From Bryobacterales bacterium (GTDB lineage: Bacteria > Acidobacteriota > Terriglobia > Bryobacterales > UBA6623), in the NCBI GenBank assembly GCA_963422375.2, contig OY729428.2:2784001-2848000 (forward strand): 64,000 nucleotides of DNA. Direction: 5' to 3'. Positions 34,437 through 63,511 of this stretch are shown here, piece after piece. Each line of letters begins with the position of its first letter. The stretch's first letter is position 1. The notes beneath the pieces are model-generated. The model had not been told where the DNA came from and ran no database searches. It was given only the letters and a program-made list of their open reading frames with translations. The position numbers and the translations under genes were made by a program.

Positions 34437-36359
34437 CTAGGGAATTGTCCTCAGTACGCGGAAGCCCAGGACGCTGTTGCGGTCGCCGGGGCTGAGCCTG
34501 AAGCGGTACGCCGACCGGCCGTACCGCGGACCGTCGCCCCAGCTGCCGCCCCGAAGGACCCGGTCGGAGCCCGTAGCGGGGCCTCGCGGATCTGTCGCAG
34601 CGCCGCTCGGGTAGGACCCGTACCAGTCCTGCACCCACTCCCATACATTTCCGTGTACGTCGTGCAAGCCGAAAGCGTTTCGACTGAATGACCCCACCGG
34701 AGCCGTATGCACGTAGCCGTCCCGACACGGCGCGACCCCGGCCCAACGGTAGTGGTCCGCTCCGACTTGGTCTGCCATGTTTCCGTACCCGCAGGTCCGC
34801 GTGTAGTCCGGATCATCGCCATAGGAGAAGCGGGTCTCCGATGTCCCCCGAGCCACGTACTCCCACTCCGCCTCGGTCGGCAACCGATACTTCTCGCCTG
34901 TCTTCCCCGACAGCCACTTCACGTACGCCTGAGCATCGTTCCAAGACACACACACCGCGGGCTCCTGCCGACCCTGGCGGAACCCGGGATTCGTCCACGA
35001 TCGCCCGGTGCGAGCATCCCATTCCCCGCTCTCGTGAGTCCGGCACGCCGACCCGCCGTCATGGCCGGCGTCATCCACGAATCGCCCGTACTGCTCCTTC
35101 GTCACTTCGTACACTCCTACCGCCAGCGGGCCGCTGATTGTCACGCGGCGACGAGGCCCCTCATCGTCCTCCCGGTCATTCTCATACGCCGGCGACCCCA
35201 TCATGAATGAGCCCCCGTCCACCACCACCATCTCCGGACAGCTATCGCAGTCCCGAAAACGGTCCCCATCCAGGCCTGGACGCAATCCACGTAGACTCCT
35301 CTCCGGCACTCCAAGGACCACTGCCAGCAACGTCGCAGCGACGGTCCCCGTCACCAGCGCTACCAGCCACCGCGCGGTCGAGCGAGACCGGTCTGGATGC
35401 ACATTAGAGCGCTCTTCGGCGACGCGCCCCGACCCCTGCAGGAGCCCCACGAGGTCCGCGCAGTCCTGTACTCGGTCCTCCTCCCTCAATTCAAGGCATC
35501 GGTCAATCGCCGTGAGAATCCGCTCCGGGAACCGCCCTGCTCCCACCTCTCGCGCCGGCGGCAGTGGGTCCGCTTGGCCCCGCAAGAACGCGGTCAGCCG
35601 CGCCTCCACCTTCACCGGCTGCCGGGATACTGACTCCACCGCCCCTCCGGCGACCATCCGCCACATCACCGCCCCGACCGCGTACAAGTCCGTCCACGGC
35701 CCCAGCTTCCCTTGCCCAACCTGCTCGATCGCCGCGAAGCCTTCCGTGTAAGGGGCGTAAGTCCGCGACACTCCAGCGAGCGTCTGCTTCGCCGCACCGA
35801 AGTCGATCAGCACCGGTCGCTCCGCCTCCTGCCGAATCAGGATGTTGCTGGGCTTGATGTCCCGGTGCAACACGCCAGCTTCGTGGACCGCCTTCAGCCC
35901 TCCCAGCAGCGGAACGATCACCGCCAGCAGGTCAGCCTCGCCGAACGGCCTCCGCGCACGCTCCCGCAGCGCCAGCAAGTTCGCCAGCGACATGCCTTCC
36001 ACGTAATCCATCACGAGGTAAGCCGTGCCGTTCTCCCGGAAGAAATCCCTGCACGTCACGACGCTGGGGACGTCCTTGAATTCGGTCAGGCGCTTCGCTT
36101 CCTCGAGGAACCTATGCAGGCCCTCCGCGAAGTCCTCCCTGCCAGCCTTGCTCCTCGGATGCACCATGCCGTCCTCGCGGACGGACAGCTCGGCGGGGAA
36201 ATACTCCTTGATCGCAACGAGGGATCCAAGGTCCCGGTGCAGCGCCTTGTAGACGATGCCGAAACCGCCGTGCCCCAGCTGCGCCTGCACCTCGTACACG
36301 CTATTGAGAAGCAGGCTGCCCGCCGGCAGCGCGACACGGGTGGGGTCTTCGCCGCCCAT
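34437..36359 (-). CDS. Ser/Thr kinase, TM, CLec/FGE-sulfatase domain; DGR target (variable) protein
   Basis: Kinase GHGGFGIVY, AIKEY, HRDIKPSN, DFGAAK; TM WLVALVTGTVAATLLAVVLGV; FRDCDSCPEMVVV..., RLPTEAEWEY, GNVWEW, RGGSW, GFRV; 3' end matches TR. Confidence 0.95.
   Translation of the reverse strand: MGGEDPTRVALPAGSLLLNSVYEVQAQLGHGGFGIVYKALHRDLGSLVAIKEYFPAELSVREDGMVHPRSKAGREDFAEGLHRFLEEAKRLTEFKDVPSVVTCRDFFRENGTAYLVMDYVEGMSLANLLALRERARRPFGEADLLAVIVPLLGGLKAVHEAGVLHRDIKPSNILIRQEAERPVLIDFGAAKQTLAGVSRTYAPYTEGFAAIEQVGQGKLGPWTDLYAVGAVMWRMVAGGAVESVSRQPVKVEARLTAFLRGQADPLPPAREVGAGRFPERILTAIDRCLELREEDRVQDCADLVGLLQGSGRVAEERSNVHPDRSRSTARWLVALVTGTVAATLLAVVLGVPERSLRGLRPGLDGDRFRDCDSCPEMVVVDGGSFMMGSPAYENDREDDEGPRRRVTISGPLAVGVYEVTKEQYGRFVDDAGHDGGSACRTHESGEWDARTGRSWTNPGFRQGRQEPAVCVSWNDAQAYVKWLSGKTGEKYRLPTEAEWEYVARGTSETRFSYGDDPDYTRTCGYGNMADQVGADHYRWAGVAPCRDGYVHTAPVGSFSRNAFGLHDVHGNVWEWVQDWYGSYPSGAATDPRGPATGSDRVLRGGSWGDGPRYGRSAYRFRLSPGDRNSVLGFRVLRTIP
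34456..34571 (-). repeat. DGR variable repeat (VR1)
   Basis: 116-nt ungapped match to TR 62021-62136; 18 mismatches, 17 at TR adenines. Confidence 0.93.
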
Positions 36360-36559
36360 GGAGAATGAGTGCTCTTCCTAATCGCGTCGCGACCTTGCCC
36401 GTTTCGAGGCGCAGCGCGAACGGAACTTGAATATACCGAATCCAACCTAATTCCCAGCTACTTGCGAAGTAGGTGGCTCGAACTGCCTGCGTGCGTTGGA
36501 AGGCGATTGGCTCACGGCGCCCATGCAGCAGAATCGTCTCATTCGACATGCCAAGACAT

Positions 36560-36800
36560 GAGAACGCGGGAGTCGATGCGCGGCGCATACGAACGGCATC
36601 GAGTCGTTTTGGTCCCTGTTCAAGCGCGGCCTGTACGGAACCTATCACCGGATGAGCGTCCGTCATCTCGGCCGCTACCTCACGGAGTTCGCGGGACGGC
36701 GCAACGACCGCGACTGCGACACGGCGGAACGGATGCGGCGCATGGCGCGGGGCCTGGTCGGCCGGACGCTGACCTGCCGGCAGCTGACCGGCAAGGCCGC
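36560..36800 (+). pseudogene. IS1595-family transposase C-terminal fragment
   Basis: Translates as AHTNGIESFWSLFKRGLYGTYHRMSVRHLGRYLTEFAGRRN..DT..RM.....GLVGRTLT; N-terminus missing. Confidence 0.8.
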
Positions 36801-37225
36801 GGTCGCGGCCCGAGCGGCGCCCGCCGCGCCGAGCGCGGCAGCCCGCTGCGGGCGCGCTCTTCACGCTCGGTACGAGGGGCGCACCGGATCCGGCATGCCC
36901 CGGCGCGACCCCGGTCCGGTCCGGACCGTCCATGCAGGCCGTCGAGCGCCGGGGATCCGCTGTCTTCGGCCCTCGCAGGGCCTGCAAGCGGCTTGCAAGG
37001 CGTGCCCTGCCACCGCCAACCGGGTTTCACCGGGGCAACCGGGGCATGCGAGGCGGCCTCTCTAGTCCCTTCCTCGTCCAATCCGCTGGCAGGCTCGATT
37101 CACATACGATCCCACCCCCCACCCCTCTGTGCCCGCCGCGGCCGCACTCGCATGACCCCAGCTCGACACCCACCTCCCTGCTCACAGCAGTTCTAGGCCG
37201 ACATGGCGTTGTCGGCACTCAGATA

Positions 37226-38788
37226 GAGCCTTTTGCAAAAATCCCGAGCTAATAGCATTATCATTTAGTTAGTCTATTAAGTATTCGATATAATCAATGG
37301 AATAGAACTGAAGTAAATGTAGTTTTAATGGCTTGTCTGCGTTTTGAGTTTCCTGACAATCCCTTGCCCTCCGTGCTATTATTGTAATGCAAGCCTAGTA
37401 AACAGCTGGCAGGATTCAACGAATATGTCCTTGATAGAAACCGTATCCGCGTACTGGTTCACGTTCCAGCAGGGGCTGTTCCCCTGGCTCCAGCAGGAAC
37501 TCGGCCCCCTCGGCGAGCGCTACCGCAGCTTCGTTCAAGCGGTGGAACTGGCGCAGGTCGAGGACTGCCTGCCCGTCGGGCAGGGCGGCCGCGGCCGCCC
37601 CCGCGCAAGCCGCGCCGCCATGGCGCGCGCCTGCATCGCCAAGGCCGTCTTCGACCAGCCCGCTACGCGCTCGCCGGTCGAGCGCCTGCAGACCGATCAC
37701 ACCCTGCGCCGACTGTGCGGCTGGGACCTGGCCGGGGCCGTGCCCGGCGAGGCAACCTTCTCGCGCGCCTGCGCCGAGTTCGCCGCCGGCGAACTGCCCG
37801 GACGCTTGCACCAGGCGCTGCTCGCGCGGACGCTCGACGGCCGCTTGGCAGGGCACGTCTCCCGCGACTCGACCGCCATCGAGGGCCGCGAGCGGCCCGC
37901 CGGGAAGCCCGCGCCGGAGCCGAAACGCAAGCGCGGGCGCCCTCGCAAGGGCGAGCAGCGGCCGCCCGCTCCGCGCCGACTGGCGCGGCAGCCCGACATG
38001 AATCTCGAAGCAATGCTGCACGACCTGCCGCAGGGCTGCGATACCGGCACCAAGCGCAACGCCAAGGGCCGTACCGTCAGCTGGCGCGGCTACAAGCTGC
38101 CTATCGACGCGATCGACGGCGGGATCCCGGTCAGCTGCCTGCTCACCGCGGCTTCGCTGCACGACAGCCAGGCCGCGATCAGGCCGCGATCCCGCTGGCG
38201 ACACGGACCGCGGGCCGCGTCGACAACCTGTACGACCGGATGGACAGCGCGCGCGACGCGGCCGGGATCCGGGCCTTCAGCAAGCGGCTCGGGCACGTGC
38301 CGATCATTGATGTCAACCCGCGCGGCCGGACGGAGCTGCAGGCGGATCTGGCACGGGAGGCCAAGGCGCTGCGCAGCGCCGGGCGGGCGGAGCCCGCCAA
38401 GCTGCGCTACCGCGAGCGCTCGACGGTGGAGCGTGTCAACGGCCGCCTGAAGGACGATTGCGGCGGGCGCCACGTGCGCGTCCGCGGCCACGGCAAGGTG
38501 GCCACGGCAAGGTGCTGTGCCACCTCCTGTTCGGCGTGCTCGCGCTGACGGTGGAGCAGCTCCTGCGCCTGGCGCTCCGAGAGCCCGGGCCGCCGGGACA
38601 GCCGCGAAGAGCGCCCGCCCGCAGGGCCGCGCCGGGAGAGCTGCGCCTGCACCGGGCCGCTCCTCGCAGGAGCGCCCCGCAGCCGAGCAAGCCCAGCTGC
38701 AGGGGGTCTTTTTCGGCGAGAATAACAGCCCGGAAACTAGTCGTTCATGGGGCGGTCAGCCCTCTTTTCTGAATTTTGCAAAAGGCTC
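37226..38788 (+). mobile_element. IS5/IS1182-like DDE insertion sequence (defective)
   Basis: TIR GAGCCTTTTGCAAAA (15 bp perfect, 17/18) at both ends; AGATA direct repeat at 37221-37225 and 38789-38793. Family assignment tentative. Confidence 0.88.
37425..38580 (+). pseudogene. DDE transposase, frameshifted twice
   Basis: GRP, LRRLCGW..PGEATFSR, SRDSTAI, W.GYKL, SLHDSQ, YRERSTVERVNGRLKD, KV.CHL.FG; frames broken by 11-bp (38170-38191) and 14-bp (38487-38514) tandem duplications. Confidence 0.85.
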
Positions 38789-38945
38789 AGATATATAATT
38801 CCCTTTCGAATCAATGCGCCTCAATGCGCCGTATCTTGACAGGAACGGAGCGCTTCGGGCTCTCGCTCCCGATGCCCTGTCAGCGGCCGACGGTCAGCTT
38901 ACTGGAACCTCGCCGACGCGCGGAGTCGAGGCGTCACAGGGCCAA

Positions 38946-39806
38946 TCACTCAGTCCAGTCCTTCGGCAGCGGAGGGGCCAGCTTCAGGCGTCGCAGGACT
39001 CGATACGGAAACCGGCGCAACTCGCGGCTCATCCTGCTCTCTACCCTTGCGTGCCGCGATTCCACTTCCGCGACCCATGCGTCGAGCTTGCTGATATGCA
39101 GTTCCCGCTCCCGCAGCACGTTTCCGCTCGCGGGGACGTAAGCCAGTGGGGCGAGGGAGGGGAGCGGCTTCATCGAACACATCGCCACGAAGAAGTGCGC
39201 CGACTCCGGCTCGAACGACGGCGCTTCGAAGCTGGCCCGCGCATCCGACGCAGCCGCCGACATGATCGCGACGGCCGGGGCGTGATTCTCGAGGAAGACT
39301 GCGGCATGGGCGAACGCCGCACCGAGGGCCGCCCGGAACTCGTCGTACTCGAATTCATGCACGTGGAACGGATTCGGCTCCTCCCGCGTGGTCCGGTAGT
39401 AGGCGGCGTTCGGTGTCGAGACTAGGAAGAGTCCTGTCGGCACCAGCACGCGGGCAGCTTCGCGCACGAGGCCGACCCATCCCTCGATGTGCTCGATCAC
39501 TTCGAACGCGACGACCAAGTCAAGGGAATCGTCGGCGAATGGCAGGGCCGTGCAATCGCCTCGGACGAAGCGCACGGCCGGGTAATTGGAACGGCCGTGG
39601 CGAACCGCCTCGGCTGCATTGTCGAGTGCGTAGGCCTTCGCGCCCGCGCCCGCGAGCCGCCCCGCGCCGTAACCCGTCCCGCACCCCGCGTCCAGAACAC
39701 GCCGCCCCGCTGCCAGCGGCTCGGCGAAGCAGTAGCGAGCAACATGCTCGTTCCGCAGGTCCGGGTCGCTCGCCTCGAGAACCAGACGCTCGCCGGTCGG
39801 ATCCAC
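38946..39806 (-). CDS. Class I SAM-dependent methyltransferase (surface-glycan associated type)
   Basis: TGERL..EHVARY, VLDAGCGTGYG, FEVIEH, STPN, NPFHVHE. Confidence 0.88.
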   Translation of the reverse strand: MDPTGERLVLEASDPDLRNEHVARYCFAEPLAAGRRVLDAGCGTGYGAGRLAGAGAKAYALDNAAEAVRHGRSNYPAVRFVRGDCTALPFADDSLDLVVAFEVIEHIEGWVGLVREAARVLVPTGLFLVSTPNAAYYRTTREEPNPFHVHEFEYDEFRAALGAAFAHAAVFLENHAPAVAIMSAAASDARASFEAPSFEPESAHFFVAMCSMKPLPSLAPLAYVPASGNVLRERELHISKLDAWVAEVESRHARVESRMSRELRRFPYRVLRRLKLAPPLPKDWTE

Positions 39807-39905
39807 CTAGCCCCCTCCTTCCATTAGCGCATCCGAGAACTCAGGCGCACCGACCGGCACCCGAACCGCCATGGGCCGGTCGGGCGCTATTGTAGGGAGA
39901 GGCCT

Positions 39906-40280
39906 TTGGACACTCGCACGAAGATCGTCGAGCGGGCCGCGCTGCTCCCGTCGCAGCCCCGCCCCTGCCTGGCGAAGGGCTGGTTTGACGTCCTAACCGC
40001 CGAGCACTGCTCGCTCCTAGCCGAAGCTAAGGCACGGAACAGACCCTTGGTGGTCTTGGTATATCGCGAAACCGCACGCCGCCCCGCCCCGCTCCGCGGC
40101 TACGACCGCGCCCAGATGGTCGCGGCGCTGGCAGCCGTCGACCGTGTCTGCCTGTGCGAGGAGCCCCAGGCGGATTCGATCGCGGAGGATATGGCCGCAG
40201 TATCCGTGCTCGATGTCGATGCCGTCCAGCAGCGGGACGTGGTTCGCGATGTTCTCGAGCGTCACGTCGACCGCCGGTAG
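39906..40280 (+). CDS. Degenerate cytidylyltransferase-like (HldE/RfaE adenylyltransferase-like) protein
   Basis: DTRTKI, GWFDVLTAEH, RAQMVAALAAVDRV; upstream of a heptosyltransferase. Confidence 0.65.
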   Translation: MDTRTKIVERAALLPSQPRPCLAKGWFDVLTAEHCSLLAEAKARNRPLVVLVYRETARRPAPLRGYDRAQMVAALAAVDRVCLCEEPQADSIAEDMAAVSVLDVDAVQQRDVVRDVLERHVDRR

Positions 40281-41277
40281 GTCGCCCCGCATCCTGATCG
40301 TGCGCCTCGGCGCCATGGGCGACGTCATCCATACGCTCCCCGCGGCCGCCGACCTGCGTGCAGCCCTACCCGCGGCCCGCATCGCCTGGGCGGTCGAGAC
40401 GCGCTGGAGCTCGCTGCTGCAGGCGAATCCCCATATCGACCGGACGATCCCAGTACCCCTTCGGCGCTGGCGCAAGGCCAGTCTCCGGCGCTCGACCTGG
40501 ACCGAGGCCGGGGAATTCCTGAACGGACTCCGCACGAATTCCTTCGATCTCGCGATCGACTTCCAAGGACTCCTCAAGTCGGCGGCTCTGGCAACTCTGA
40601 GCGGTGCCCGGAGAATCGTCGGATTCGAGCGGGGAATCCTACGGGAGCCCCCGGCCGAGCTCGCATACTCTCGCCGCACGGGCGCGTCGCTCGCCCACGT
40701 CGTAGACCGGTACCGCGAGCTTGCGGCCTTCGCGTCCGGACACCGCCCCGCGGGCCCGGCCGCGTTCGCCCTGCCCGTCGGCGAGCCGAGGGAGGGCCTG
40801 CCCGCGCGCTTCGTCCTCGCCAGCCCCGAAGCCGGCTGGGGCGCGAAAGAGTGGCCACCGGAGTCCTACGCGCGGCTTGCCTCGACACTCTGGAAGGAGC
40901 GCCGCATCCCGCTCGTCGCGGATTGCGCACCGGGCCGGACGCACGTCGCGGAATTGATCCGCCGCATGGCCCCCGCAGGAGCCGTGCTCCCGCACCCCTC
41001 GACGATCCCCCAGCTGATCGGAGCCACACGGGCAGCCGCCGCCGTGGTCGGCGTGGACAGCGGCCCGCTGCACCTAGCCGCGGCGCTCGGCAAGAGCGGC
41101 GTTGCAATCTTCGGGCCGACCGACCCGACCCGCAACGGCCCCTACGGGCGAGGCATCGCGGTCGTTCGCTCCGGCGGCGCCGCCACCACCTACAAGCGCC
41201 GCGACGATCCCAGCGCGTCCATGCAGGCTTGCAGCGAGGCGACGGTCTACGAGGCGCTCGCTCCCTCGCTGGGTTGA
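40249..41277 (+). CDS. GT9 lipopolysaccharide heptosyltransferase
   Basis: RILIVRLGAMGDVIH, DLAIDFQGLLKSA, KEWP, GVDSGPLHLAAA, FGPTDP; start uncertain. Confidence 0.9.
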   Translation: MFSSVTSTAGRSPRILIVRLGAMGDVIHTLPAAADLRAALPAARIAWAVETRWSSLLQANPHIDRTIPVPLRRWRKASLRRSTWTEAGEFLNGLRTNSFDLAIDFQGLLKSAALATLSGARRIVGFERGILREPPAELAYSRRTGASLAHVVDRYRELAAFASGHRPAGPAAFALPVGEPREGLPARFVLASPEAGWGAKEWPPESYARLASTLWKERRIPLVADCAPGRTHVAELIRRMAPAGAVLPHPSTIPQLIGATRAAAAVVGVDSGPLHLAAALGKSGVAIFGPTDPTRNGPYGRGIAVVRSGGAATTYKRRDDPSASMQACSEATVYEALAPSLG

Positions 41278-41291
41278 GTAGACTCGTACCC

Positions 41292-42365
41292 ATGCGACGA
41301 CGCTGCCTCGCGCTGCTGGTCCTGCCCGCCCTGCTCCTGCTGCGGCCGTCGGTCTGCGACGCAGGCGAACTGCTGAACGGCCGCGAGGTCGGCCGGTTGA
41401 TGCGAGGCATCGCGGACCTCCTGGAAGCGACCCGCATCGTCATGCCGGAACTGTCCCGAGCGGGCGCCCCGCTGCAAGAGAACTTCCGCCAAGGGATCTC
41501 CACCCTCGAGATCTCGCCGAGCCAAAACCATACGGGCATCCTGTACCGGATGCTGGTCAACGCCAAGGCCTACCTGCTGCTGTCCGACACGCTGCCCAAG
41601 CCAGCCGATTTCCCGGAGGACTTCGACAGGCAGCTCTCCGACCTGCGCAACTCGATCGAGCGTTTCGAGGGGCACTTCCGGGCGACCTTGGACCTGCGCG
41701 AGGAGCAGGCGCTCGGCGCGGACCGCGACAACTTCCGCCGCTACGCCGACGCGAACCGTCGCGTCGGGCCGGCCTCCGACGAAGGCCCGCGCGTCGTCTT
41801 CCTAGGCGACTCGATCACCGACGGGTGGAAGCTCGACCAGTACTTTACCGGAAATCCGTACTACAACCGCGGCATCAGCGGCCAGATCACGGGGCAGATG
41901 CTGGGACGGGCCAAGCCGGACGTGGTGGACCTGAAAGCCTCGGCGATGGTGCTCCTTGGAGGGACGAACGATTTGGCGCGAGGCGTGTCCGATGCCGCAA
42001 TCCGGAGCAATCTCGAAGCGATCGGCCTGCTGGCCGAAGCGGCGGGCGTCTATCCGATCATGGCGTCTATCCTCCCGGTGAACGACTACCGCGAGGCGTC
42101 GAATCCGCGCTTCCGCCGGACCACGCTGCGCGACCCGACGCGCATCATCGAACTCAATCGCTGGCTCGAAGCTACCTGCGACGCCAAGGGATGGGCGTAC
42201 CTGGACTACTTCAGCGCGATGACCGACGCGGAAGGACGGCTCCGCGACGATCTGTCGGACGACGGGCTGCACCCCAACGCAGAGGGCTACAAGGTCATGG
42301 CTCCACTCGCGCAAGCGGCAATCGACCGCGCCTTGCGCTCCAAGGGCCGCCGCGGGCGGCGCTAG
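41292..42365 (+). CDS. Secreted SGNH/GDSL hydrolase with helical N-terminal domain
   Basis: Signal peptide; VFLGDSIT, NRGISG, GGTND, DGLHPN. Confidence 0.9.
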   Translation: MRRRCLALLVLPALLLLRPSVCDAGELLNGREVGRLMRGIADLLEATRIVMPELSRAGAPLQENFRQGISTLEISPSQNHTGILYRMLVNAKAYLLLSDTLPKPADFPEDFDRQLSDLRNSIERFEGHFRATLDLREEQALGADRDNFRRYADANRRVGPASDEGPRVVFLGDSITDGWKLDQYFTGNPYYNRGISGQITGQMLGRAKPDVVDLKASAMVLLGGTNDLARGVSDAAIRSNLEAIGLLAEAAGVYPIMASILPVNDYREASNPRFRRTTLRDPTRIIELNRWLEATCDAKGWAYLDYFSAMTDAEGRLRDDLSDDGLHPNAEGYKVMAPLAQAAIDRALRSKGRRGRR

Positions 42366-42510
42366 TCGGAGGGAGAATCCAGCGGCTCCGGAACTCGGCC
42401 GGTCGCGCAGGCCGCGGGCCGGACGCGGGGGCGCTTCCGGCCCGGGACGCGAATGGCTGCTAAGCTTATGGTCCGGCAGTGCCCCCGCGGCCCGGATCGC
42501 GCAGGCAGCT

Positions 42511-43029
42511 ATGTCCATCCTCGACATCTTCAGAGCCGCACAGAAGCGCAAGCCGGCCCGCATGAGCGAGTCCGAGACCTTGCGCCGGATTACGCGCGCC
42601 GTCGAGGAGCTATCCCCGGAACGAGCGCGGTTCATCGCGGCCTTCGCCTTCATCCTCGGGCGCGTGGCCGCGGCGGACATGGAGATCAGCGGCGAAGAAG
42701 TCGCGGAGATGGAGCGCATCGTCGAGCGCGTGGGCCGTCTCCCCGAAGAGCAGGCCGTGCTGGTCGTCCAGATCGCCAAGGCGCAGCATGCGCTGTTCGG
42801 AGCCACCGAGAATTTCGTGGTCACCCAGGAGTTCAACCGCATCGCAACGAGGCTGGAGAAGCAGGCCCTGCTCAACTGCCTATTTGCGGTGTGCTCCTCG
42901 GACCAGTCGATAAGCGTCCAAGAAGACAACGAGATCCGCGCGATCAGCCGGGAATTGCGCTTGGATCACGTCGATTTCATCGCCGCGCGCTCGATTTACA
43001 GAGAACACCTGAACGTACTCAAGGACTAG
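42511..43029 (+). CDS. TerB-family protein
   Basis: [38 protein letters not shown]. Confidence 0.78.
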
Positions 43030-43105
43030 ACCCCCGGCCGCAGGGACGCGGCCTCGGCCCGGCCTTCGCGAGAATCTGCAGAGCACCGGAGAGGCAAGGA
43101 AAGCG

Positions 43106-43582
43106 ATGGAAACAGCGACATTCGGGGCCGGTTGCTTCTGGGGAGTGGAGGCAGAATTTGCCGGCGTTCCCGGCGTCAAGTCAACCGAGGTGGGCTACGC
43201 GGGCGGCTCGCTCCCGGATCCGAGCTACCGCGACGTATGCCGGGGTGACTCGGGCCACGCGGAGGTGGTCCGAGTGACATTCGACCCGGGACGCGTCAGC
43301 TACGAGACGCTGCTCGAGACCTTCTGGACGTGCCACGACCCGACCCAAGTCAACCGCCAAGGGCCGGACGTGGGCTACCAGTACCGGTCGGTGATCTTCT
43401 GCGAGAACGCAAGGCAGGTGACCGAGGCCGCCGCGTCCAAGGCTCGCTTGGAGCGCAGCAAGACCCATTCCCTCCCAGTCGCGACCGCGATCGAACCGGC
43501 GGGCGCGTTCTACCGGGCGGAGGAGTACCATCAGCAGTACCTCGCCAAGCGCGGCTTGGCGGCCTGCCATCCCGCATACTGA
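43106..43582 (+). CDS. msrA: Peptide-methionine (S)-S-oxide reductase
   Basis: [41 protein letters not shown]. Confidence 0.96.
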
Positions 43583-43772
43583 GTGCGAGCGGTCGGCGCA
43601 GCTGGCCGCCCGGACCGGCCTGACCGTCGCTGCGGGCCGAAGCGCCAGTGCCGATCAGGCGTGTCCGCTCGCCACCTCGCGAGCGCGGTGCATTGGGCAG
43701 CGGCTCCGCGGCGAGCGCCCGCGTCCGCCCGGCACGGCGCTCTCGAATGCCCCTGCGGTGAGGAATCCAGCC

Positions 43773-44831: not shown

Positions 44832-44891
44832 GGCCCGGCTCGCCAGGTCGCGGCACCATGCAGGGACGCGTCCGATGCCCGTTGCGAACTG

Positions 44892-47030
44892 CTACTGTTC
44901 GCGACCGAACAAGCCTCCCAGGAAGTTCTTCAGGCGGGGCGGATCGCCGTCGACCCCCTCTTCGTCTTTGGACTTGGGCCGCTCGGGGTCCGGGCTGGAC
45001 TGCTCCGGGCCGGTCTCGCTGTCCCCGTCGCTCGCGGCAGCCTGCTTGTCTCCCGGGCTGTCCTCCTGCTCGGGAGCGGACGGCTCCCGGGTCGTCCCCA
45101 CGTACCGGATGCCCGTTTCCGCGGTGTCGCGGACACCGAGATATCCCTTGGCCCGTGCGTGGTCCAGCAGATCCCTGAGGCTGCGAACTCCGTACTGGCT
45201 GACCTCGAAGTCCGAGTCGGCCTCTCGAATGGCGGCCCTCAACTCGCTTCTCGACAGGCCCGGGCCGGCGAAGCGGGGGTTCCCTCGGAGCGCGCGCAGG
45301 AGCACTTCCAGCGCGGCGTCAATCCCTTGCGGCCCGGCCGACGCCGCGGGTCCGCGCGGCTTGCGTTCCGGCGCTTGCGACACCGGAGCGGGCCGACGCG
45401 GAGGTGATTCTGCATCCTCGCCGCGCCCTTCGCGCGAGCTTTGGTCGGGGCGGCCCGGGGCGACCGCCGGCTCGGCGACGCGCTCGCCCGGCACCTCCTC
45501 CGCGGATTCGGGCGGGAAATAGAGCTCCCGTCCCTCCGCGTCCCGGCGCAGCTCTAAGAAACCCTCTCGAACCACTCGCGCCAGCAGGTCCTCGGCCCCG
45601 GCCACCCCTAGCGCCTCCTCGTCGAAGCCGGGGTGCGCCCGGAACATCGCCTCCATTTGCTTGGAGGGTATGCCCGCCGTCAGCAAGGAGCCGCTCTCTC
45701 GCAGGATCTCGCCCACGACGTGCCGAGCGGCGGGGCTGAGGCGGCTAGCGGCAGCTTCCGGATCGTCGTCAGCTTCGTGCAGCTCCACGACGAAGGTGCC
45801 TCCGACAGCCTCCAGATGCAGTTCCCCGTCCTGTGCCAACCGGCCCGCGAACTTGCGGAATTCGTGGGCCGCGCAGCCATACGACCGGAAGCGGGGGTCG
45901 AGGTCTAGAACCGTCCGGTACAGGAGATCGAGTTCGGCGTTCTTCCCGTCCAAGGCGATCTGGCGCACCGCCTGCCGGATTACAGAGAGCGCCTTCTTCG
46001 GGTCAGGCTGCGCGACGGGCCGCGAGGGCGCGGTGGGCCGTTCCTGGCGCATCGGAGGTGCGCCGGCCTCGTCAGGCGGCCCGCCGCGCGAGTAGCTCCG
46101 CTCGCCCCGGTCCCTGCCGCGAGAGTAGCCGCTGCCCTCGTCCCGGACACCGCCCCGGTGAGGGGGCCAGCGCTGGCCGTACCGGTGCGAGTCGCGCGGT
46201 CCCGGCGGGGAATCCGCCCGGCCCTCGGGCTCGGCAATGCAGAACCGCCCTTCGCCGATCATCTTCCTGCGGAGGTGACCGGCATCGACCAGCCGGATGA
46301 TCAGGTCCTTGAACGAACCGCATTCGAAACGGCGCGCATCGAAACCGGGATTGATCTCGAGCAGTACTTCCTCGAGCTGACGGATGTAGGGGATCTCGCC
46401 GACCCGCTCCATCTCCCTGATCGCCTGCCGCATGGCGGGCAGCGCCTTTTCCAAGGGGTCGGAGTGCCGGTCGTACCGTCGGAACCCTTCCGCTTGCGTC
46501 ACGGGCTGGCGCGCCGCCGGCCGGGGATGCCGGTCCGCGGGATAGCCGGCCAGGTCCTCGTAGCTCACGAACTGGTGGCAGTTGCGGCGCAAGTTCTCGC
46601 TGGTGAACGGGATGCCCGCCACAACGTAGACGCGCTTGTTGTACCGCTTGAGCTTCTGCACGAGCGGCAGGAAATCGCTATCGCCGCTCAGGATGCAAAA
46701 CGCATCGATGTGCTCTTGGGTGAACACGAGTTCCAAGGCGTCGATGGACAGGGCGATATCGGCGCCGTTCTTGCTGCCGTCGTACGACGTCTCGAGATGC
46801 TCCATCTTGACGCCGAGCTGCGCCATCCCCCGCGAGACGGTCTTGAAGTCCGGGTGAATGTTCCAGTTGCCGTAGGCGATCTGCGACTGGATCTCGCCTC
46901 GCTCCTCAAGCCAGCTCTTTACGAGCTTGTAATCGAATCCCTGCTTGAGTGTGTTCCAGACGCCCGTCGCGATGTTGTCATAGTCGATAAAGACGGCGAA
47001 GTTCAATCGATCCTGCAAGGTTCCTCTCAA
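44892..47030 (-). CDS. NYN domain protein with several OST-HTH/LOTUS-like domains
   Basis: AVFIDYDN, KNGADIALSIDA, SGDSDFLPL; repeated (P)GFD...(F/Y)G..(S)F/L..L motifs. Confidence 0.85.
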   Translation of the reverse strand: MRGTLQDRLNFAVFIDYDNIATGVWNTLKQGFDYKLVKSWLEERGEIQSQIAYGNWNIHPDFKTVSRGMAQLGVKMEHLETSYDGSKNGADIALSIDALELVFTQEHIDAFCILSGDSDFLPLVQKLKRYNKRVYVVAGIPFTSENLRRNCHQFVSYEDLAGYPADRHPRPAARQPVTQAEGFRRYDRHSDPLEKALPAMRQAIREMERVGEIPYIRQLEEVLLEINPGFDARRFECGSFKDLIIRLVDAGHLRRKMIGEGRFCIAEPEGRADSPPGPRDSHRYGQRWPPHRGGVRDEGSGYSRGRDRGERSYSRGGPPDEAGAPPMRQERPTAPSRPVAQPDPKKALSVIRQAVRQIALDGKNAELDLLYRTVLDLDPRFRSYGCAAHEFRKFAGRLAQDGELHLEAVGGTFVVELHEADDDPEAAASRLSPAARHVVGEILRESGSLLTAGIPSKQMEAMFRAHPGFDEEALGVAGAEDLLARVVREGFLELRRDAEGRELYFPPESAEEVPGERVAEPAVAPGRPDQSSREGRGEDAESPPRRPAPVSQAPERKPRGPAASAGPQGIDAALEVLLRALRGNPRFAGPGLSRSELRAAIREADSDFEVSQYGVRSLRDLLDHARAKGYLGVRDTAETGIRYVGTTREPSAPEQEDSPGDKQAAASDGDSETGPEQSSPDPERPKSKDEEGVDGDPPRLKNFLGGLFGREQ

Positions 47031-52818: not shown

Positions 52819-52974
52819 GGGAGAGTCGGCGATTCTTGCGCACCGCAGGCCACCCCAGCCCGATGTCGACAGCCCCCGCGGGGCAGGCAGGCGTCGTTCG
52901 AAGGCGGCGGTTCCCCGCCCTCCCGCCAAGCGACGGGCCGAAGAACCGAGCAATTCCGGATCCACGGTGCGAAC

Positions 52975-54735: not shown

Positions 54736-54757
54736 TCCGAGAGCGGAACGCAAGTCC

Positions 54758-56032
54758 ATGCCACTCCAAGGATTCCGCTACGTCGAAGGCGCGCTGCTCT
54801 GCGAGAGCGTCGCCCTGAGCGACATCGCCTCGTTCGCCGGCACTCCCACCTACGTCTATTCCGCGCAGGCAATCCGAGAGAATTTCCGCCGCTATAAGGA
54901 ATCGCTGGCGAGCGTCCCGCACGAGATCCACTACGCGGTGAAGGCCAACTCGTCCCTAGCCGTGCTGGCCCTGCTGGCATCGGAGGGCGCCGGCTTCGAC
55001 ATCGTTTCCGGCGGGGAGCTGTACCGCGCGCTCCGTGCCGGCGGGGACCCGGCCAAGGTGGTCTACTCGGGCGTCGGCAAGACGGAAGCCGAGCTGCGCT
55101 ACGCGCTGCAGTGCCGCATCGGGGCGTTCCACTGCGAGTCGGCCCAGGAGCTGGACCTCCTGCGGGGCATCTGCCAGGCGACCGGGGCTTCGCCCGCGGT
55201 GGCCCTGCGCGTCAATCCCAATATCGACGCCATGACCCATCCGTACATCGCGACGGGCCTGAGCGAGCACAAGTTCGGCATCGCGATCGAGGAAGCGGAG
55301 TCGCTCTACCGGGACGCGCAGCGCTGGGCTCCGCTGCGCTTCACCAGCCTGAGCTGCCACATCGGCTCGCAGATCTTCGACATCGGCGTCTTCCGGGAAA
55401 CGGTTCGCCAGATGCTCGCGCTCGCCGCCCGCTTGCGCGACGCGGGAACCGCGATCCGCTCGATCGACCTGGGAGGGGGGCTGGCCGTCGGATACCTGGC
55501 CGACCAAGCCAGCGTGTCGATCCGGTCCTACGGGGAGATGCTCAGCGAAGCGCTGGGCGGCACGGGCTTTCGTCTCGGTCTCGAGCCGGGACGGTCGATC
55601 GTGGGGCAGGCCGGAGTGCTGCTGACCAAGGTGCTGTTCCGCAAGCCGACCGGGAGCAAGACGTTTCTGGTCGTGGACGGGGCGATGAACGATCTGATCC
55701 GTCCGGCGCTCTACAGCGCGCACCACGAGACGCTTCCGGTGCGCCGGACCGCCGGGCCCGCAACGAAGTGTGACGTCGTCGGGCCCATCTGCGAGAGCGG
55801 CGACTTCCTGGCGAGCGGGCGGGATCTGCCTCCGTGCGAGCAGGGCGACCTGCTGGCGGTCGCGACGGCGGGAGCCTACGGCTTCGTGCAATCGTCCAAC
55901 TACAACTCCCGCCCGCGCGCGGCGGAAGTGCTCGTGGACGGGCAGAGCTTCCGCGTCGCGCGGAGGCGCGAGACCTACGAGGACCTGGTGCGAGGCGAGA
56001 CAGCGGAGCGCGTCATTCCCGCGCGCCGTTGA
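54758..56032 (+). CDS. lysA: Diaminopimelate decarboxylase
   Basis: TPTYVYS, YAVKANS, HIGSQI, DLGGG, EPGR, GPICESGD, AGAYG, NYNSRPR. Confidence 0.96.
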   Translation: MPLQGFRYVEGALLCESVALSDIASFAGTPTYVYSAQAIRENFRRYKESLASVPHEIHYAVKANSSLAVLALLASEGAGFDIVSGGELYRALRAGGDPAKVVYSGVGKTEAELRYALQCRIGAFHCESAQELDLLRGICQATGASPAVALRVNPNIDAMTHPYIATGLSEHKFGIAIEEAESLYRDAQRWAPLRFTSLSCHIGSQIFDIGVFRETVRQMLALAARLRDAGTAIRSIDLGGGLAVGYLADQASVSIRSYGEMLSEALGGTGFRLGLEPGRSIVGQAGVLLTKVLFRKPTGSKTFLVVDGAMNDLIRPALYSAHHETLPVRRTAGPATKCDVVGPICESGDFLASGRDLPPCEQGDLLAVATAGAYGFVQSSNYNSRPRAAEVLVDGQSFRVARRRETYEDLVRGETAERVIPARR

Positions 56033-56092
56033 TCCGGACTCCTCCAGCCCGCTCGACTTCCCGGCGGCGGTCTCCGAGTGCAGCTCGCGGCG

Positions 56093-59221
<3,129 letters not shown>

Positions 59222-59237
59222 CCGCGTCTCCCGCCGG

Positions 59238-60482
59238 CTAGTCGTACTCCCCGGCGAGGAACCACTCGCCCGTGGTTCTCTCGCAGCAGGCCCGGTACAG
59301 GCGCCGCTGGACCTCGACGTCCCATTCCTGGTACTGCCAGCCTTCCGGCGTCCACCACTCGCCCGAGACACGCCAGGGCCCGGCGCAGGCCGTCACGGGC
59401 CCGCGAGCCTCCCGCGCCTCGACACGGACGGGACGGCCGCCGCGCAGGGTCACCTCCGCTGGGCTCGACGGCCGGAAGCAGCGGAAGGCCAAGGAGCTCC
59501 TCGGAGGGACGGCCACCCGGAGAGAGCGCGGCTGCCGGCGTTCCCGCGAGAGTCCGGGCGAGCCCGGCGCAAGGCCGGTCCCGCACCCTGCCGCGGGCGG
59601 GCGGAACGCCGCCAGCGCCGCCGCGCCGGGCCGGTGCGTGTCCGGAACCACCGGCGCCCCGGCCCGCCCGTCCCCGACCAAGCAGGCCAGCCGCGCCAGC
59701 GTCACCGCCAGGGTCTCCGGATCCGGCAGGTCGGGCGGCGCGAACAGGGACGCCTGCACCCGCCGGCGCTCGGCTGGCTCGGCCGACACGCGCACGCCCT
59801 CGACCGAGCCGCCCGGGGGATGCGCTTACAGGTCGACCATCCGCCCGCGCGGCAAGGTCGCCAGATCGCCGATCTTGCGCACGCCCCAGCGCTCCAAGGT
59901 CGCTCGGTCCTTGCCGTCCAAGGGCAGCAAGTCGAGGGGCAGATCCTGCAGGAAGCCGGGCTCCTGCCCCGGGTACACGTGGGTCACGCCCGGCTGCGTG
60001 CGCGCCGCGCACAGGGCGACGAAGCGGTTGCAGGCGACGCCGACACTAGCGCGGAGTCCGAGCCGGGCGGCGCCCGCGACCAGGCCCGCGGCCGCGGCGT
60101 AGGGATCGTGCAAGCCCGCGAAGTCCAGCGCGAGCAGGCCGGGCGCGACCTCCTCGAATAGCGGCGTCGCCGTCTCGGCCAGCTTCAGCAGCCGGGCATG
60201 GGCCCTCCGCTCCGCCCCGACGTCGCGGTCGAGAACCAGCAGCGGCCGCTGCGCCCCGGCAACGGAATAGCGCGCCTGCGCAGCAGCCAGAACCATGCCC
60301 TCGCGCACTCCTAGCGACCTAACGCGCGCGTCGGCGGCGTAGACGAACCGGTTGGGCGGCTCGCCGCAAGCGACCGTCGTCGGCTGCGGCCGGCGCTCTC
60401 CCGCCTGCAGCACGGCGACGGGGAAGTCGGGCACGTGCAGCGCGGCGTACAGGCGGGCGGCACCGGAGGGCCGCGCTGTCAT
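59238..60482 (-). pseudogene. imuB: ImuB (inactive Y-family polymerase) pseudogene
   Basis: ATG overlaps the imuA stop; Y-family N-part and ImuB C-part (DTHRP, GPWRVSGEWW, G.YD) are in one frame separated by TAA at 59826-59828; the middle looks deleted. Confidence 0.78.
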
Positions 60483-61201
60483 CTCGCTCTCCCCGGACGC
60501 AGGCCGCGCACTCTGTCCCGGACGATTTCCGCGCGAATGCCGATGCCTCCCAGCAGGCCGTCCCACTCGGTCCGCTCGCGGCGCAGCTCCAGCACCACGT
60601 CCGCAACGCTGCCGGCCACGTGCTTGGCGGCCAGCACGACCAGTGCCGCGGGCGTACCTTCCACGGCCTGCCTGAGCCGCGTCCACGTCCGCCGCTGCCA
60701 GTCGCCGAGCTGGCGGTCGGAAAGCCCTCCGAGGTCGACCGCGATCAAGCCGAAGCCGCCTGCCGAGACGACCAGGTTCGTCGCGGACCAAGCCTCGTCC
60801 GCAGGCGAGAGGCTCCGCGCTCCCGGGTCGCGACGGAGAGTCCCCGGATCGCCGCAGCGGACCCACAGCAGCCGCTCCAGCAGCACCCCGGCCTGCTCCG
60901 CCGAGCGGGGATCCAAGCAGTCGGTCGCGTCGACGTACGCGGCGATCTCGCTCGCTCGGGTCAGCCGGGCGAGAGCGGCCAGGACCAAGCCCGTGCGACC
61001 GGACGAGCACGGCCCGGTGACTTCGCTGATCGCGCCGCGGGGGAGACCGCCGCCGAGCCGGGCGTCCACGCTCTCGATCCCGCTCGGCACGGGGGGATGA
61101 CGGGGCTTGGCCCGTCCGGGAAGGGTCCGGCCGAACCCGCGCTTCCGGACCAGCTCCTCAATCACTCCGATGCTCTTGGGCAATGCGGCGGGACAAGACA
61201 T
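60479..61201 (-). CDS. imuA: ImuA / RecA-like protein
   Basis: PSGI..VD..LGGGLPRGAISEVTG..SSGRT, AYVD, RLLWVRC, GGFGLIAVDL; first gene of imuA-imuB-dnaE2. Confidence 0.85.
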   Translation of the reverse strand: MSCPAALPKSIGVIEELVRKRGFGRTLPGRAKPRHPPVPSGIESVDARLGGGLPRGAISEVTGPCSSGRTGLVLAALARLTRASEIAAYVDATDCLDPRSAEQAGVLLERLLWVRCGDPGTLRRDPGARSLSPADEAWSATNLVVSAGGFGLIAVDLGGLSDRQLGDWQRRTWTRLRQAVEGTPAALVVLAAKHVAGSVADVVLELRRERTEWDGLLGGIGIRAEIVRDRVRGLRPGRAR

Positions 61202-61204
61202 ATA

Positions 61205-61240
61205 TTTGTATTTTCTTCGATTTTATATCATATTATAGCT
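61205..61240 (-). promoter_or_regulatory. AT-rich promoter region of the imuABC operon
   Basis: TATAAT on the minus strand (61232-61237) in an AT-rich patch just upstream of the imuA ATG; no LexA box could be called. Confidence 0.45.
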
Positions 61241-61254
61241 CACTCTTGCGGGCA

Positions 61255-61520
61255 GGTTGTGCGCTGCGCACCGAGACCACCGTCAACGACACTCACGACT
61301 TCGGCATCGACCGGAGGCTGGGCACCCTAGACAGCATCGCGCCGATCAGCTGCGCAGTCGGCCGGGACCGACGGCCAGCGCGCGCCCTGCGCTTCGGGGA
61401 CGCCCGCGTGCTGCGCCCGGACCTGTCGGCGGCCTTCGCGGCCTGCCTCCACTCGGCACCCCTGCGCAAGGCCCTCGCACTCTTCGACCGCGAGACGAGC
61501 AGCTTCGGGAGGGCCAGTCG
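61255..61520 (+). pseudogene. Heavily deleted remnant of an unclassified transposase-like gene
   Basis: ALRTETTVNDTHDFGIDRRL..., ALRFGDARV, LRPDLSAAF resemble spaced motifs of a repeated putative transposase family (recollection only). Confidence 0.4.
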
Positions 61521-62010
61521 ATCGCCGCGTGGAACTCCGGTGTCAACGTTCCGCATCGACAAGCAATCTAGGTGCAGGAATACCGAGAAGCGGAAACGCG
61601 GGAGTCTTCACGCGACGCCTAGCTGGGCGCAAGCGTCTCGGAGAGGGATGCTGTCGCGATGGCGAGCTGGCAAGCTTTCGATGTCAGGCACAGCGCCAGC
61701 GCGGGGACCCTGTATTACTGGCTGTGTACAAGCTGGGCTAACCGAGAGCGGCTGCGGGAACCATCGCCTACCGCACAATTCCGACAAGCCCCGTGCGCGC
61801 TACCCGGGCACGGGGGCAGTGCCCCCGCCTGATCGAATCCAGTCGCCACGGCGGTCGCGCCTGCAACGGCCTTCGAGCCCGGGCAGGCCTACCAGACGTC
61901 GCAGGCGCTATGGGTTGTTTGTCCGGCCGCCTGCCGGAGCGGGATGAACCGCTTGGACACGGCGATGGCACGCGGGCGAGGTCCTTGAACCGCGCCCTCT
62001 GGCGCCGTCG

Positions 62011-62136
62011 TGTGCTCAGCACGCGGAAGCCCAGGTTGCTGTTGCGGTTGCCGGGGCTGTTCCTGTTGCGGTTCGCCGACCGGCCGTTCTGCGGATGGTT
62101 GTTCCAGCTGCCGCCCCGATTGACCCGGTTGGAGCC
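62011..62136 (-). ncRNA. DGR template repeat (TR) including IMH*
   Basis: Begins about 11 nt after the RT stop; 11 AAY codons in the CLec frame (GSNRVNRGGSWNNHPQNGRSANRNRNSPGNRNSNLGFRVL); matches VR1. Confidence 0.95.
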
Positions 62137-62147
62137 TGCTACGGCGG

Positions 62148-63161
62148 TCACCCCAGATGCAAGGATACCTCGAACACCTGCCTGCGCGCCATGTGGCAGT
62201 CTGCGTGACTGACGTGCGCGACCATGCTACGCACGAACTGCGCGAGCTCGTCCTCGGAGATCTTTCCGTGTCGGTATGCCCTCTCCCGGCCTCGGACGCG
62301 ACGGCGCAACCGCGCCCATTGGCGGCCATCGAGCCTCAGCAAGACGGGAAAGACGCGGAAGCCGAGGAATGGAATCCCTTGGGTCACGGGAGCGAGCCTA
62401 GTGTGTTCCTCCCGCAGATCTAGTCGCAGCGTCTCCGACAGGAATTCCCGGACGGCAGCCAGAGCCTCGTGCAGCCGAGGCTTATCACGAGCGAAGACCG
62501 CGACATCGTCCATGTAGCGCACGTAGCCCGGCAGGCGCAGCCTGTCCTTGACGAAATGGTCCAACTCGCCCAGATACATGTTCGCGAAGTACTGGCTCGT
62601 GAGATTCCCGATGGGGACACCCTTCCCCGGCGCACATCCTGGAATCGGATGGTCGACTATCCCGTCGATGAGCGCTAGCAACGCCTTGTCCTTGACCTTG
62701 CGCCTCCACATCGCCTTGAGCACGTCGTGGTCAATCGTCTCGAAGTACTGGCGGACGTCGCAGAGTAGCGCGTAGGGGAATCGCCGCGCAAAGTGCTGCA
62801 CTCGACGCACGGCCGCGTGAGTGCCGCGGCTCCTTCGGCACGCACAACTGTCGTCGATCAGACCCTGCTCGACGATCGGATCGAGAACGTTGCAGAGAGA
62901 GTGGTGAACCACCCTGTCGCGGAAGTCCGCCGCGCAGATCTTGCGGGGCTTCGGCTCGCGGATCTCGAACACACGATACGGACGCATCCGGTAGCGGCCG
63001 GACTGCAGATCCTCCTGCAGCATGAGCAAGTTGGACTCCAAGTGGAACACGAACCTAGCAATGCCGACGTTCCCCTGCTTTCCCCGCCGTGCGGCATAAG
63101 CGGCATCCAGCAGGCTCCGATACTCGGTGACCTGCTCGAACAGGTGCCCGTGTCGTTTCAT
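62148..63161 (-). CDS. DGR reverse transcriptase
   Basis: EPKPRKI, FRDRVVHH, D+RQYFETIDH, GVPIGNLTSQ, YVRYMDD, FLGF; intact 337 aa with no maturase/endonuclease tail. Confidence 0.96.
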   Translation of the reverse strand: MKRHGHLFEQVTEYRSLLDAAYAARRGKQGNVGIARFVFHLESNLLMLQEDLQSGRYRMRPYRVFEIREPKPRKICAADFRDRVVHHSLCNVLDPIVEQGLIDDSCACRRSRGTHAAVRRVQHFARRFPYALLCDVRQYFETIDHDVLKAMWRRKVKDKALLALIDGIVDHPIPGCAPGKGVPIGNLTSQYFANMYLGELDHFVKDRLRLPGYVRYMDDVAVFARDKPRLHEALAAVREFLSETLRLDLREEHTRLAPVTQGIPFLGFRVFPVLLRLDGRQWARLRRRVRGRERAYRHGKISEDELAQFVRSMVAHVSHADCHMARRQVFEVSLHLG

Positions 63162-63511
63162 CGGCCCGCCTGCTGCTTGCGCCAGCCTCCGAGCATAGCG
63201 CCAACCTCGCTCATGCGGCGCATGGCGTACTCGCAGCGCGAGTGCGGGAAGTAGCCCACCACATGGCAGATCCGCAGCAAGATTCTCAGCTTCTCGAGAC
63301 GCAGGTTAGCACGCGCCAAGACCGGCTGCTTGGCGCGGGAATACCGCGCCTCGACCAAGTCCTCGGCCATATCGAGGGCTAGGTTGTCGATGCGGTTGGA
63401 AAAAGTGAAACGGACATGCTTAGGGAGCTTGGCGGTCGTCGGCAGCAACCAGTTCAGGAAATCCAGCCACGCAACGAAGACAGGCAGGTCCCCGTCTGAC
63501 CTCGTGCCCAT
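63158..63511 (-). CDS. avd: DGR accessory variability determinant
   Basis: 117 aa basic helical protein: LPKHVRFTF.NRI, LEKLRILLRI, EVGAMLGGW; ATGA overlap with RT. Confidence 0.92.
   Translation of the reverse strand: MGTRSDGDLPVFVAWLDFLNWLLPTTAKLPKHVRFTFSNRIDNLALDMAEDLVEARYSRAKQPVLARANLRLEKLRILLRICHVVGYFPHSRCEYAMRRMSEVGAMLGGWRKQQAGR

Follow-up and report, generated by a model that had tools for sequence, protein, structure and literature searches.

A cellular diversity-generating retroelement with one template repeat and three paralogous receptor kinase genes as its probable targets in a Bryobacterales genome

We analyzed a stretch of 64,000 nucleotides (nt) from a Bryobacterales bacterium of the phylum Acidobacteriota (assembly GCA_963422375.2, contig OY729428.2, positions 2,784,001 to 2,848,000), here called the window, whose right end carries the core of a diversity-generating retroelement (DGR). 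The genome (G000) comprises 6.0 Mb in 3 contigs with 67% GC, and the window corresponds to C2:2784001-2848000. An earlier note, made from the letters of the window alone, had described an avd gene, a reverse transcriptase (RT) gene and a template repeat (TR) at this end, together with a distant variable repeat (VR) in the gene of a receptor Ser/Thr kinase. The features on which our analysis rests are listed below; coordinates with no prefix are positions in the window, the others are numbered within the contig or locus named. TM stands for transmembrane segment and CLec for a C-lectin fold of the formylglycine-generating enzyme (FGE) type.

63648-64000 in the window, minus strand: frameshifted HRDC gene (HRDC half at 63648-63893; N-terminal half from 64065, past the window end)
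63158-63511, minus strand: avd, 117 amino acids (aa), overlapping the RT start by 4 nt
62148-63161, minus strand: DGR RT, 337 aa, with IGNLTSQ and YMDD
62011-62146, minus strand: TR, defined by local alignment and fixed-register comparison with the VR; core at 62021-62136 with 28 adenines
61859-62031, minus strand: conserved structured RNA region, overlapping the 3′ end of the TR and running about 160 nt beyond it downstream
34437-36359, minus strand: receptor Ser/Thr kinase of 640 aa (target 2) with Pkinase at residues 22-297, one TM at 333-351 and FGE-sulfatase/CLec at 374-637
34446-34581, minus strand: window VR, core at 34456-34571, in the last 45 codons of the 640-aa target
L009:3196-5784, minus strand: adjacent kinase-TM-CLec gene, 862 aa from the public gene-call start
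C2:2848205-2848330, minus strand: adjacent VR, 205-330 nt past the right end of the window, from a genome search with the TR
L010:5084-6961, plus strand: far kinase-TM-CLec gene, the third target
C2:1379827-1379952, plus strand: far VR, 1.47 Mb away, from the same search

The cassette genes follow one another on one strand in the order target-HRDC-avd-RT-TR, and as the adjacent target lies past the right end, the window cuts through a canonical cassette.

The RT and avd genes were both found intact, as the earlier note had it. The RT scored 57 bits with Pfam RVT_1 and 383 bits with phrog_1423, and it aligned to brt of Bordetella phage BPP-1 with 38.6% identity over 96% of its length (E value of 5e-56). 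RTs of the DGR clade are marked by a motif 4 of the form [ILV]GxxxSQ and by YxDD. Among PDB sequences, the best match of the window RT was 8ub7_A (2e-61), one of the entries 8ub7-8ube that we provisionally take to be the Bordetella bRT-Avd complex, and the group II RT 6ar1 matched at 7e-23. The avd product scored 98.7 bits with the NCBIfam equivalog model DivGenRetAVD (cut-off of 80) and 58.3 bits with Pfam bAvd, and it matched phrog_3206, 'Avd protein of DGR', while no match to PDB sequences was obtained at E <= 0.01.

The core of the TR begins 12 nt past the RT stop codon, that is, directly after the RT gene as previously described, and a whole-genome search with the TR found no second all-A copy of the repeat. 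Of its 28 adenines, 15 occupy the first and 13 the second position of a codon and none the third, and 11 codons are AAC or AAT. A stop codon is reachable from none of the 17 variable codons, and the ceiling of variants amounts to 4^28 = 7.2e16 at the DNA level, which agrees with the note's figure of about 7e16, and to 2.7e16 at the protein level. The 3′ end of the TR (62011-62030) is A-poor, GC-rich and similar to the IMH* element, the template counterpart of the initiation of mutagenic homing (IMH) site.

For the core of the window VR, local alignment and comparison in a fixed register returned exactly the counts given in the earlier note for its 116-nt VR: 17/28 adenines of the TR are changed, compared with 1/88 other bases (Fisher p = 3.4e-12), so the A bias on which that note had made its reading depend is present. 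The only change outside adenines is a C-to-G substitution in a CAT codon. This VR lies 27.4 kb from the TR (27.5 kb in the note). The scan of the genome for further VRs that the note had proposed yielded two more, with 18/28 adenines and 2/88 other bases changed in the adjacent VR and 15/28 and 1/88 in the far VR. The A bias in the three VRs ranges from p = 4e-12 to 2e-10, and none of them encodes a cysteine. The TR and the VRs have in common a 19-nt, A-free, GC-rich stretch at their 3′ ends, followed by one C/G difference before the homology stops; in the window VR, a G-to-A change falls within this IMH-like 3′ end. The remote VR that the note had presented as the target is thus a genuine VR; it is, however, neither the only nor the primary one, as the canonical target beside the cassette is found just beyond the right end of the window and a third target is 1.47 Mb away.

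These data also bear on whether the locus is a DGR at all or a chance or recombinational duplicate beside a retron or group II intron RT. The best NCBIfam model of the RT is indeed that of group II RT/maturases (TIGR04416, 131 bits), but this score is far under the cut-off of 300, whereas the real group II RT of the same genome reaches 287.5 bits, and the retron St85 model gives 32 bits against a cut-off of 235. The family scores therefore do not place the RT with group II introns or retrons, the outcome that the note had set against its own reading. Together with the full-length match to BPP-1 brt, the presence of Avd, an A bias of about p = 1e-12 in three copies and a fitting design of the template codons, they led us to reject this alternative, to which we assign a negligible probability. 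We found a single DGR-type RT in the genome. The second RT-like gene, the group II intron maturase with 287.5 bits on TIGR04416 (G000:C1:1225124-1225813, minus strand, L028; cut-off of 300), contains an internal TGA and is probably a decaying intron.

The domain layout that the note had read from the target, a kinase, a TM and a CLec C terminus encoded by the VR, was recovered at the boundaries listed above. The window kinase has intact G-loop, VAIK, HRD and DFG motifs, and Pkinase scores were 126 bits for the window copy and 109 bits for the far copy, with all motifs present in both. The adjacent kinase has GHDGFG and DFE in place of the GHGGFG and DFG of the window copy, the far copy and the strain variants. 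The Asp codon of the adjacent G-loop was found at about half depth in the contigs of runs X1, X4 and X5, which is what one expects if the Gly reading stems from the cross-mapped window paralog. The CLec domain of the window target matched PF03781 with an E value of 1.7e-55, and its structural model (pTM of 0.84) superimposed on PvdO (5hha) with TM-scores of 0.76-0.82 and on Treponema TvpA (2y3c) with 0.65. The catalytic cysteines of FGE (human C336/C341) align to an Asp, encoded by a variable codon, and to a Gly (phmmer against 2aft and 2afy), and the CLec domain is therefore a binding scaffold and not an enzyme. By this alignment, the VR sits where FGE has its active-site loop. Each of the kinase-CLec paralogs has a single hydrophobic 19-mer (Kyte-Doolittle hydropathy, KD, of 2.3-2.65) between the two domains that is Arg-rich on the kinase side, and no N-terminal signal was found in any of them; this combination argues for a CLec face outside and a kinase inside the cell. 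The Pkinase plus FGE architecture as such is common, with at least 3328 proteins at E <= 1e-50 among the 8000 candidates scored.

The far VR provides evidence for action in trans. It differs from the adjacent VR at 15 positions, 12 of which are TR adenines, and the far and adjacent genes share an exact 72-nt run directly upstream of the TR-homologous part, while being otherwise about 80% identical. The 12/15 share of differences at TR adenines indicates that mutation since the last homogenization was A-directed, 1.47 Mb from the RT. The 72-nt block (window 34572-34643; index -62 to +9 of the VR register) is identical in all three targets and absent from the TR, and it could be a product of gene conversion or a cis element for homing.

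The window and adjacent loci are homologous over the CLec and into the 5′ part of the HRDC gene, with 95% identity over 1158 bp (C2:2847899-2849056 to 2818141-2819294), and over the kinase, with 86% identity over 1114 bp; a linker of about 650 bp, present in the adjacent copy only, interrupts the homology. Directly downstream of the window VR lies one further feature of interest.

34154-34432, minus strand: decayed duplicate of the 5′ part of the HRDC gene

This remnant marks the window locus as a copy of the cassette end, and the window target is a segmental duplicate of the adjacent target. An IS1595-family insertion sequence (IS) of about 1.45 kb is located at L009:5957-7405 (C2:2850957-2852405), with a fragment at window positions ~36585-37225. 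Copies and half-copies of this family, accounting for more than 250 BLAST rows on all three contigs, border both the adjacent and the window targets. In a contig of run X5, position 4248 of L009 was joined back to 2950 (1299 nt back, shorter side of 38 nt); the join is compatible with the CLec/VR segment being tandemly duplicated in some of the population, or with a repeat artefact at a low likeness threshold.

Such a duplication raises the question of whether the window VR is a passive copy, with A-substitutions inherited by duplication or gene conversion, that never homed itself, in which case there would be no true remote targeting at this locus. In favor of this view, the 5′ two-thirds of the VR carry 13 A-substitutions and one non-A change that the window and adjacent copies have in common, letter for letter. 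Moreover, the two copies differ at just 7 positions over about 750 bp of the CLec including that part of the VR, the decayed HRDC piece was copied along, and the G-to-A change falls within the IMH-like 3′ end of the window VR. On the other hand, the last ~40 nt (the 3′ third) of the VR alone contain 6 differences, 4 of them at TR adenines, as opposed to the 7 in the preceding ~750 bp, and the far VR demonstrates action in trans. We therefore regard a purely passive window copy as unlikely; the pattern fits a partial re-homing of the window VR from its 3′ end after the duplication or gene conversion.

Two further genes with CLec ends lie next to the window target.

31404-33425, minus strand: caspase (Peptidase_C14)-CLec paralog with an N-terminal hydrophobic segment (residues 13-31, KD of 1.86)
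28493-30751, plus strand: further kinase-TM-CLec paralog, with 23/28 adenine and 56/88 non-A mismatches to the TR in an ungapped register

The VR-like ends of both genes have drifted, and that of the caspase-CLec gene differs from the TR at 18/28 adenines and at 14/88 other bases. As live targets, both genes were ruled out by their 14/88 and 56/88 non-A mismatches; the caspase-CLec gene is probably a former or very old target. Its N-terminal hydrophobic segment suggests that caspase and CLec may both be exported or membrane-anchored, which would be unusual for a caspase-like protease.

The position of the caspase-CLec paralog between two kinase-CLec genes is also what speaks for a role in conflict, with the diversified kinases, and possibly the caspase-CLec protein, acting as defense sensors of invaders or competitors and not as tuners of ordinary environmental signaling. 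In the parts of the work considered here, the literature does tie DGR-diversified CLec sensors to caspase and kinase conflict systems (Dore et al. 2024, PMC10907252). The DGRs of Thiohalocapsa PB-PSB1 described there resemble the present element in the trans-acting diversification of remote or incomplete loci, in the duplication of target loci associated with abundant IS elements, and in the protein kinase and caspase-like domains of the targets. However, the PB-PSB1 targets belong to STAND NTPase or MoxR-vWA conflict systems, whereas Pfam scans of the window revealed no STAND NTPase, MoxR/vWA, TIR or adapter domains, and an extracytoplasmic sensor domain suits any external ligand. A defensive function is accordingly possible but doubtful.

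Beside the protein-coding genes, the element appears to include a structured RNA. About 170 nt from the 3′ end of the TR are conserved in an alignment with 4 related DGRs of the same genus, and in the common fold of this region, which has 56 predicted pairs, the TR 3′ end pairs with sequence downstream. Changes on both sides of a pair were seen in 13/56 pairs, compared with 5.1 ± 1.8 in shuffled alignments (0/500 reached this number) and 1-8 when the partners were slid; it should be noted that these counts come from five sequences only and from a structure derived from the same alignment as was tested. In the Bordetella DGR RNA, a structured spacer beside the TR is needed for priming. By analogy, the region is a candidate for the role that the 'Sp' priming region has in Bordetella. 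At the gathering threshold, Rfam contained no family matching at the TR. When the 120 nt that follow each VR and the TR were folded as single DNA sequences, none did better than shuffled sequences. Metagenome scans with a 24-mer upstream of the VR yielded 0 matches, and those with an 18-mer of the TR 3′ end yielded 77 loci, none of them related beyond the motif.

To place the element in its lineage, we compared it with relatives. Two proteins encoded in other assemblies (P0005 and P0006) share a 90% protein cluster with the adjacent target, and the RTs of those assemblies are 97% identical to the window RT. Pairwise, the VR-encoded residues of these three adjacent-target proteins differ at 15/45, 13/46 and 16/46 positions, while outside the VR they differ at 33/817, 37/789 and 21/789 (2.7-4.7%; p = 2e-9 to 3e-12). 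By eye, all but one of the varying VR residues in the alignment fall on A-bearing TR codons; the exception is a V/L exchange stemming from a non-A change. Such hypervariation of the VR between strains with 97% identical RTs shows that the element has been active in this lineage. In the sequencing runs, the VR differences of the X4 and X5 contigs on the adjacent copy are exactly the letters of the window paralog, as expected from cross-mapping, and a VR variant surviving in the contigs of a run may reflect the dropping of rare variants. In run X6, from a related strain, a 149-nt piece covers the VR and shows 16 differences, compared with 11 in 842 nt over the TR/RT end; this piece could come from the far paralog.

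The closest RTs (66-69% identity) come from genomes of the same genus, in line with the acidobacterial host presumed in the earlier note (order Bryobacterales). The RT was detected in 7/77 genomes of the family, including the source genome, and in 4/30 other genomes of the genus, a patchy distribution. Targets in these relatives are FGE-only and ankyrin-PPC-FGE proteins, and a more distant DGR of the same genus (43% RT identity) also has a kinase-FGE target. Two related elements are decaying: a second DGR copy in G074 (L042:9902-10202) lacks most of the TR, and the HRDC gene of G070 (L012:9000-9700) carries a frameshift and an in-frame stop codon.

The HRDC gene of the window is itself broken. 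It is split at a C6-T-C6 tract (window ~63881-63896; L009 ~2881-2896) into halves that correspond to residues 1-59 and 60-144 of a homologue from the same genus that is intact (192 aa; G074, L041), and the HRDC half scores 66 bits with Pfam HRDC. The intact fused form also occurs in another acidobacterial metagenome-assembled genome (MAG; L013). The frameshifted sequence recurs in contigs of runs X1, X4 and X5, so an assembly error is unlikely, given that these 3 runs come from 2 studies (their library types are not on record). In run X6, one additional G follows L009 position 2884 within the tract, and by codon-phase arithmetic the gene is still out of frame; the length difference could be homopolymer length variation. 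In the parts of Wu et al. (2018, PMC5758913) drawn on here, HRDC genes accompany 14/372 DGRs, about half of which also have avd.

Could the element, then, be a fossil in this strain, recently active, switched off by the HRDC frameshift and left with frozen VRs? The recurrence of the frameshift in X1, X4 and X5, the broken HRDC gene of L012 and the missing TR of L042 within the genus, and the altered catalytic motifs of the adjacent kinase all point in this direction. Yet RT, avd and TR are intact, as is the 3′ structured RNA, many DGRs function without HRDC according to the portion of Wu et al. used above (PMC5758913), and the VRs have diverged between strains with 97% identical RTs. An extinct element thus seems improbable to us.

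Collectively, our results are best explained by a cellular, non-phage DGR in which a single RT and a single TR act on three paralogous receptor Ser/Thr kinases, each a single-pass protein, a reading that we hold with a probability of about 0.9. In this scheme, RT and Avd would reverse-transcribe the TR-carrying RNA and misincorporate opposite adenines, and the cDNA would replace the last ~116 nt of each target; these cDNA and homing steps are modeled on the homologous Bordetella phage system. As a consequence, 17 codons of the C-terminal FGE-type C-lectin fold would be recoded, the fold being predicted to lie outside the cytoplasmic membrane and the kinase inside. Binding of a ligand at the rewritable face would then most likely control phosphorylation in the cytoplasm. 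Both the topology and ligand-dependent kinase signaling are deduced here from the domain layout of the receptors. The outcome would be a small repertoire of sensor kinases with up to 2.7e16 protein variants each.

Several observations weigh against this reading. Each VR contains 1-2 changes outside TR adenines, and no supported hairpin follows any of the VRs (z = +0.6 to +1.1). Independent homing of the window VR is only modestly supported, as 4/6 differences at A sites correspond to p ~0.04 by our own binomial arithmetic. The HRDC frameshift, seen in 3 runs, means that the element may be impaired now, and with its GHDGFG and DFE motifs, one of the three receptors, the adjacent one, may not signal. 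Finally, the VR variation on which this reading draws is that between strains and between paralogs, the sequencing runs having contributed contigs only, on which the paralogs cross-map.

One could go further and read several of these features jointly: the adjacent copy, with its altered G-loop and DFG, would be a catalytically impaired 'landing pad' or decoy and the intact remote copies would do the receptor work, phase variation of the C6-T-C6 tract would switch diversification on and off, and the 72-nt block would be a cis element licensing homing in trans. We consider this combination very unlikely.

The chromosomal, non-phage nature of the locus proposed in the earlier note is in accord with the surroundings of the cassette. 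Among 15 proteins (13 non-cassette open reading frames plus RT and Avd), there were 0 matches to phage structural PHROG families, one target lies 1.47 Mb away, and the neighbors are imuA/imuB/dnaE2, lysA, IS elements and an FAD oxidase. The error-prone polymerase cassette (56093-61201, minus strand) lies directly downstream of the TR and RNA region and consists of an imuA-like gene (60479-61201), an imuB-like gene (IMS; 59826-61010) and dnaE2 (56093-59371); that it stands side by side with the DGR is probably a coincidence. Further away, Pfam identified FHA genes at 5340-7004, 9306-9674 and 12088-13086 and a PP2C gene at 7023-7898. The earlier note had offered these as read-out genes of the receptor; the genes do exist, but a link to it is unsupported, as the target is over 21 kb away from them and a kinase of their own (14744-16819) stands beside them. 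The window also contains a bacterial class A RNase P RNA (677-1047, plus strand, 261.5 bits), its only Rfam match, and a gene (44892-47030, minus strand) whose 712-aa product has an NYN domain and matches OST-HTH/LOTUS weakly.

Several known systems share parts of this arrangement. The earlier note's statement that kinase-CLec proteins and remote targets are known in cyanobacteria is borne out in print: the sections of Vallota-Eastman et al. (2020, PMC7517822) considered here describe kinase-CLec variable proteins, orthocaspase-CLec paralogs, remote targets and transposon-associated spread of cyanobacterial DGRs. Like those elements, the present one combines an N-terminal Hanks-type kinase with a C-terminal CLec and a VR at the 3′ end, and it is accompanied by a caspase-CLec paralog, remote targets and transposases beside the copies. 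It differs from what is described there (PMC7517822) in its acidobacterial host (Bryobacterales) and in having HRDC and avd with the order avd-RT-TR. Furthermore, each of the three targets is predicted to cross the membrane once, with its CLec on the outside, whereas for most variable proteins of cyanobacteria a cytosolic location is predicted (PMC7517822). Likewise in print, in the part of Wu et al. (2018, PMC5758913) cited above, are targets at distances of more than 100 kb and HRDC architectures. Among them is the DGR of Treponema denticola (HRDC-type 'Architecture C'), which resembles ours in having an HRDC accessory gene and multiple targets at such distances, and whose variable protein TvpA (2y3c) is also an FGE-type CLec (phmmer 5e-16, TM-score of 0.65). 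Unlike the kinases described here, however, the Treponema targets in that account are lipoproteins with no kinase, and in our case HRDC is frameshifted and avd is also present. With the BPP-1 DGR the element shares the related RT, Avd, A-specific transfer from TR to VR, AAC-rich template codons and a structured RNA beside the TR. In contrast to BPP-1, a phage element with the order avd-TR-brt and one adjacent tail-fiber target, mtd, it is chromosomal, has three kinase targets and carries the TR after the RT, and no hairpin was detected after the VR.

Kinase-annotated CLec targets also appear in MAG surveys, as far as the part of PMC11661182 used here goes. Since kinase-CLec targets, remote targets and HRDC architectures are already in print, the locus represents a new example, well supported and more complete than is usual, and not a new mechanism. 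A full-text literature search pairing DGR with Acidobacteria or Acidobacteriota returned no such system by title or abstract; the supplementary tables of surveys, which may list some, were outside its coverage.

With this finding, the range of DGR-diversified receptor kinases reaches beyond cyanobacteria and into Acidobacteriota, a phylum that is dominant in soil yet poorly studied. It also offers a compact natural test case for homing in trans, with one TR and targets at 2 kb, 27 kb and 1.47 Mb that differ in age since duplication, and with a short DNA block common to the surroundings of every VR. Finally, the extracytoplasmic position predicted for the variable face points to a bacterial sensor whose outer domain can be rewritten and is coupled to phosphorylation in the cytoplasm.

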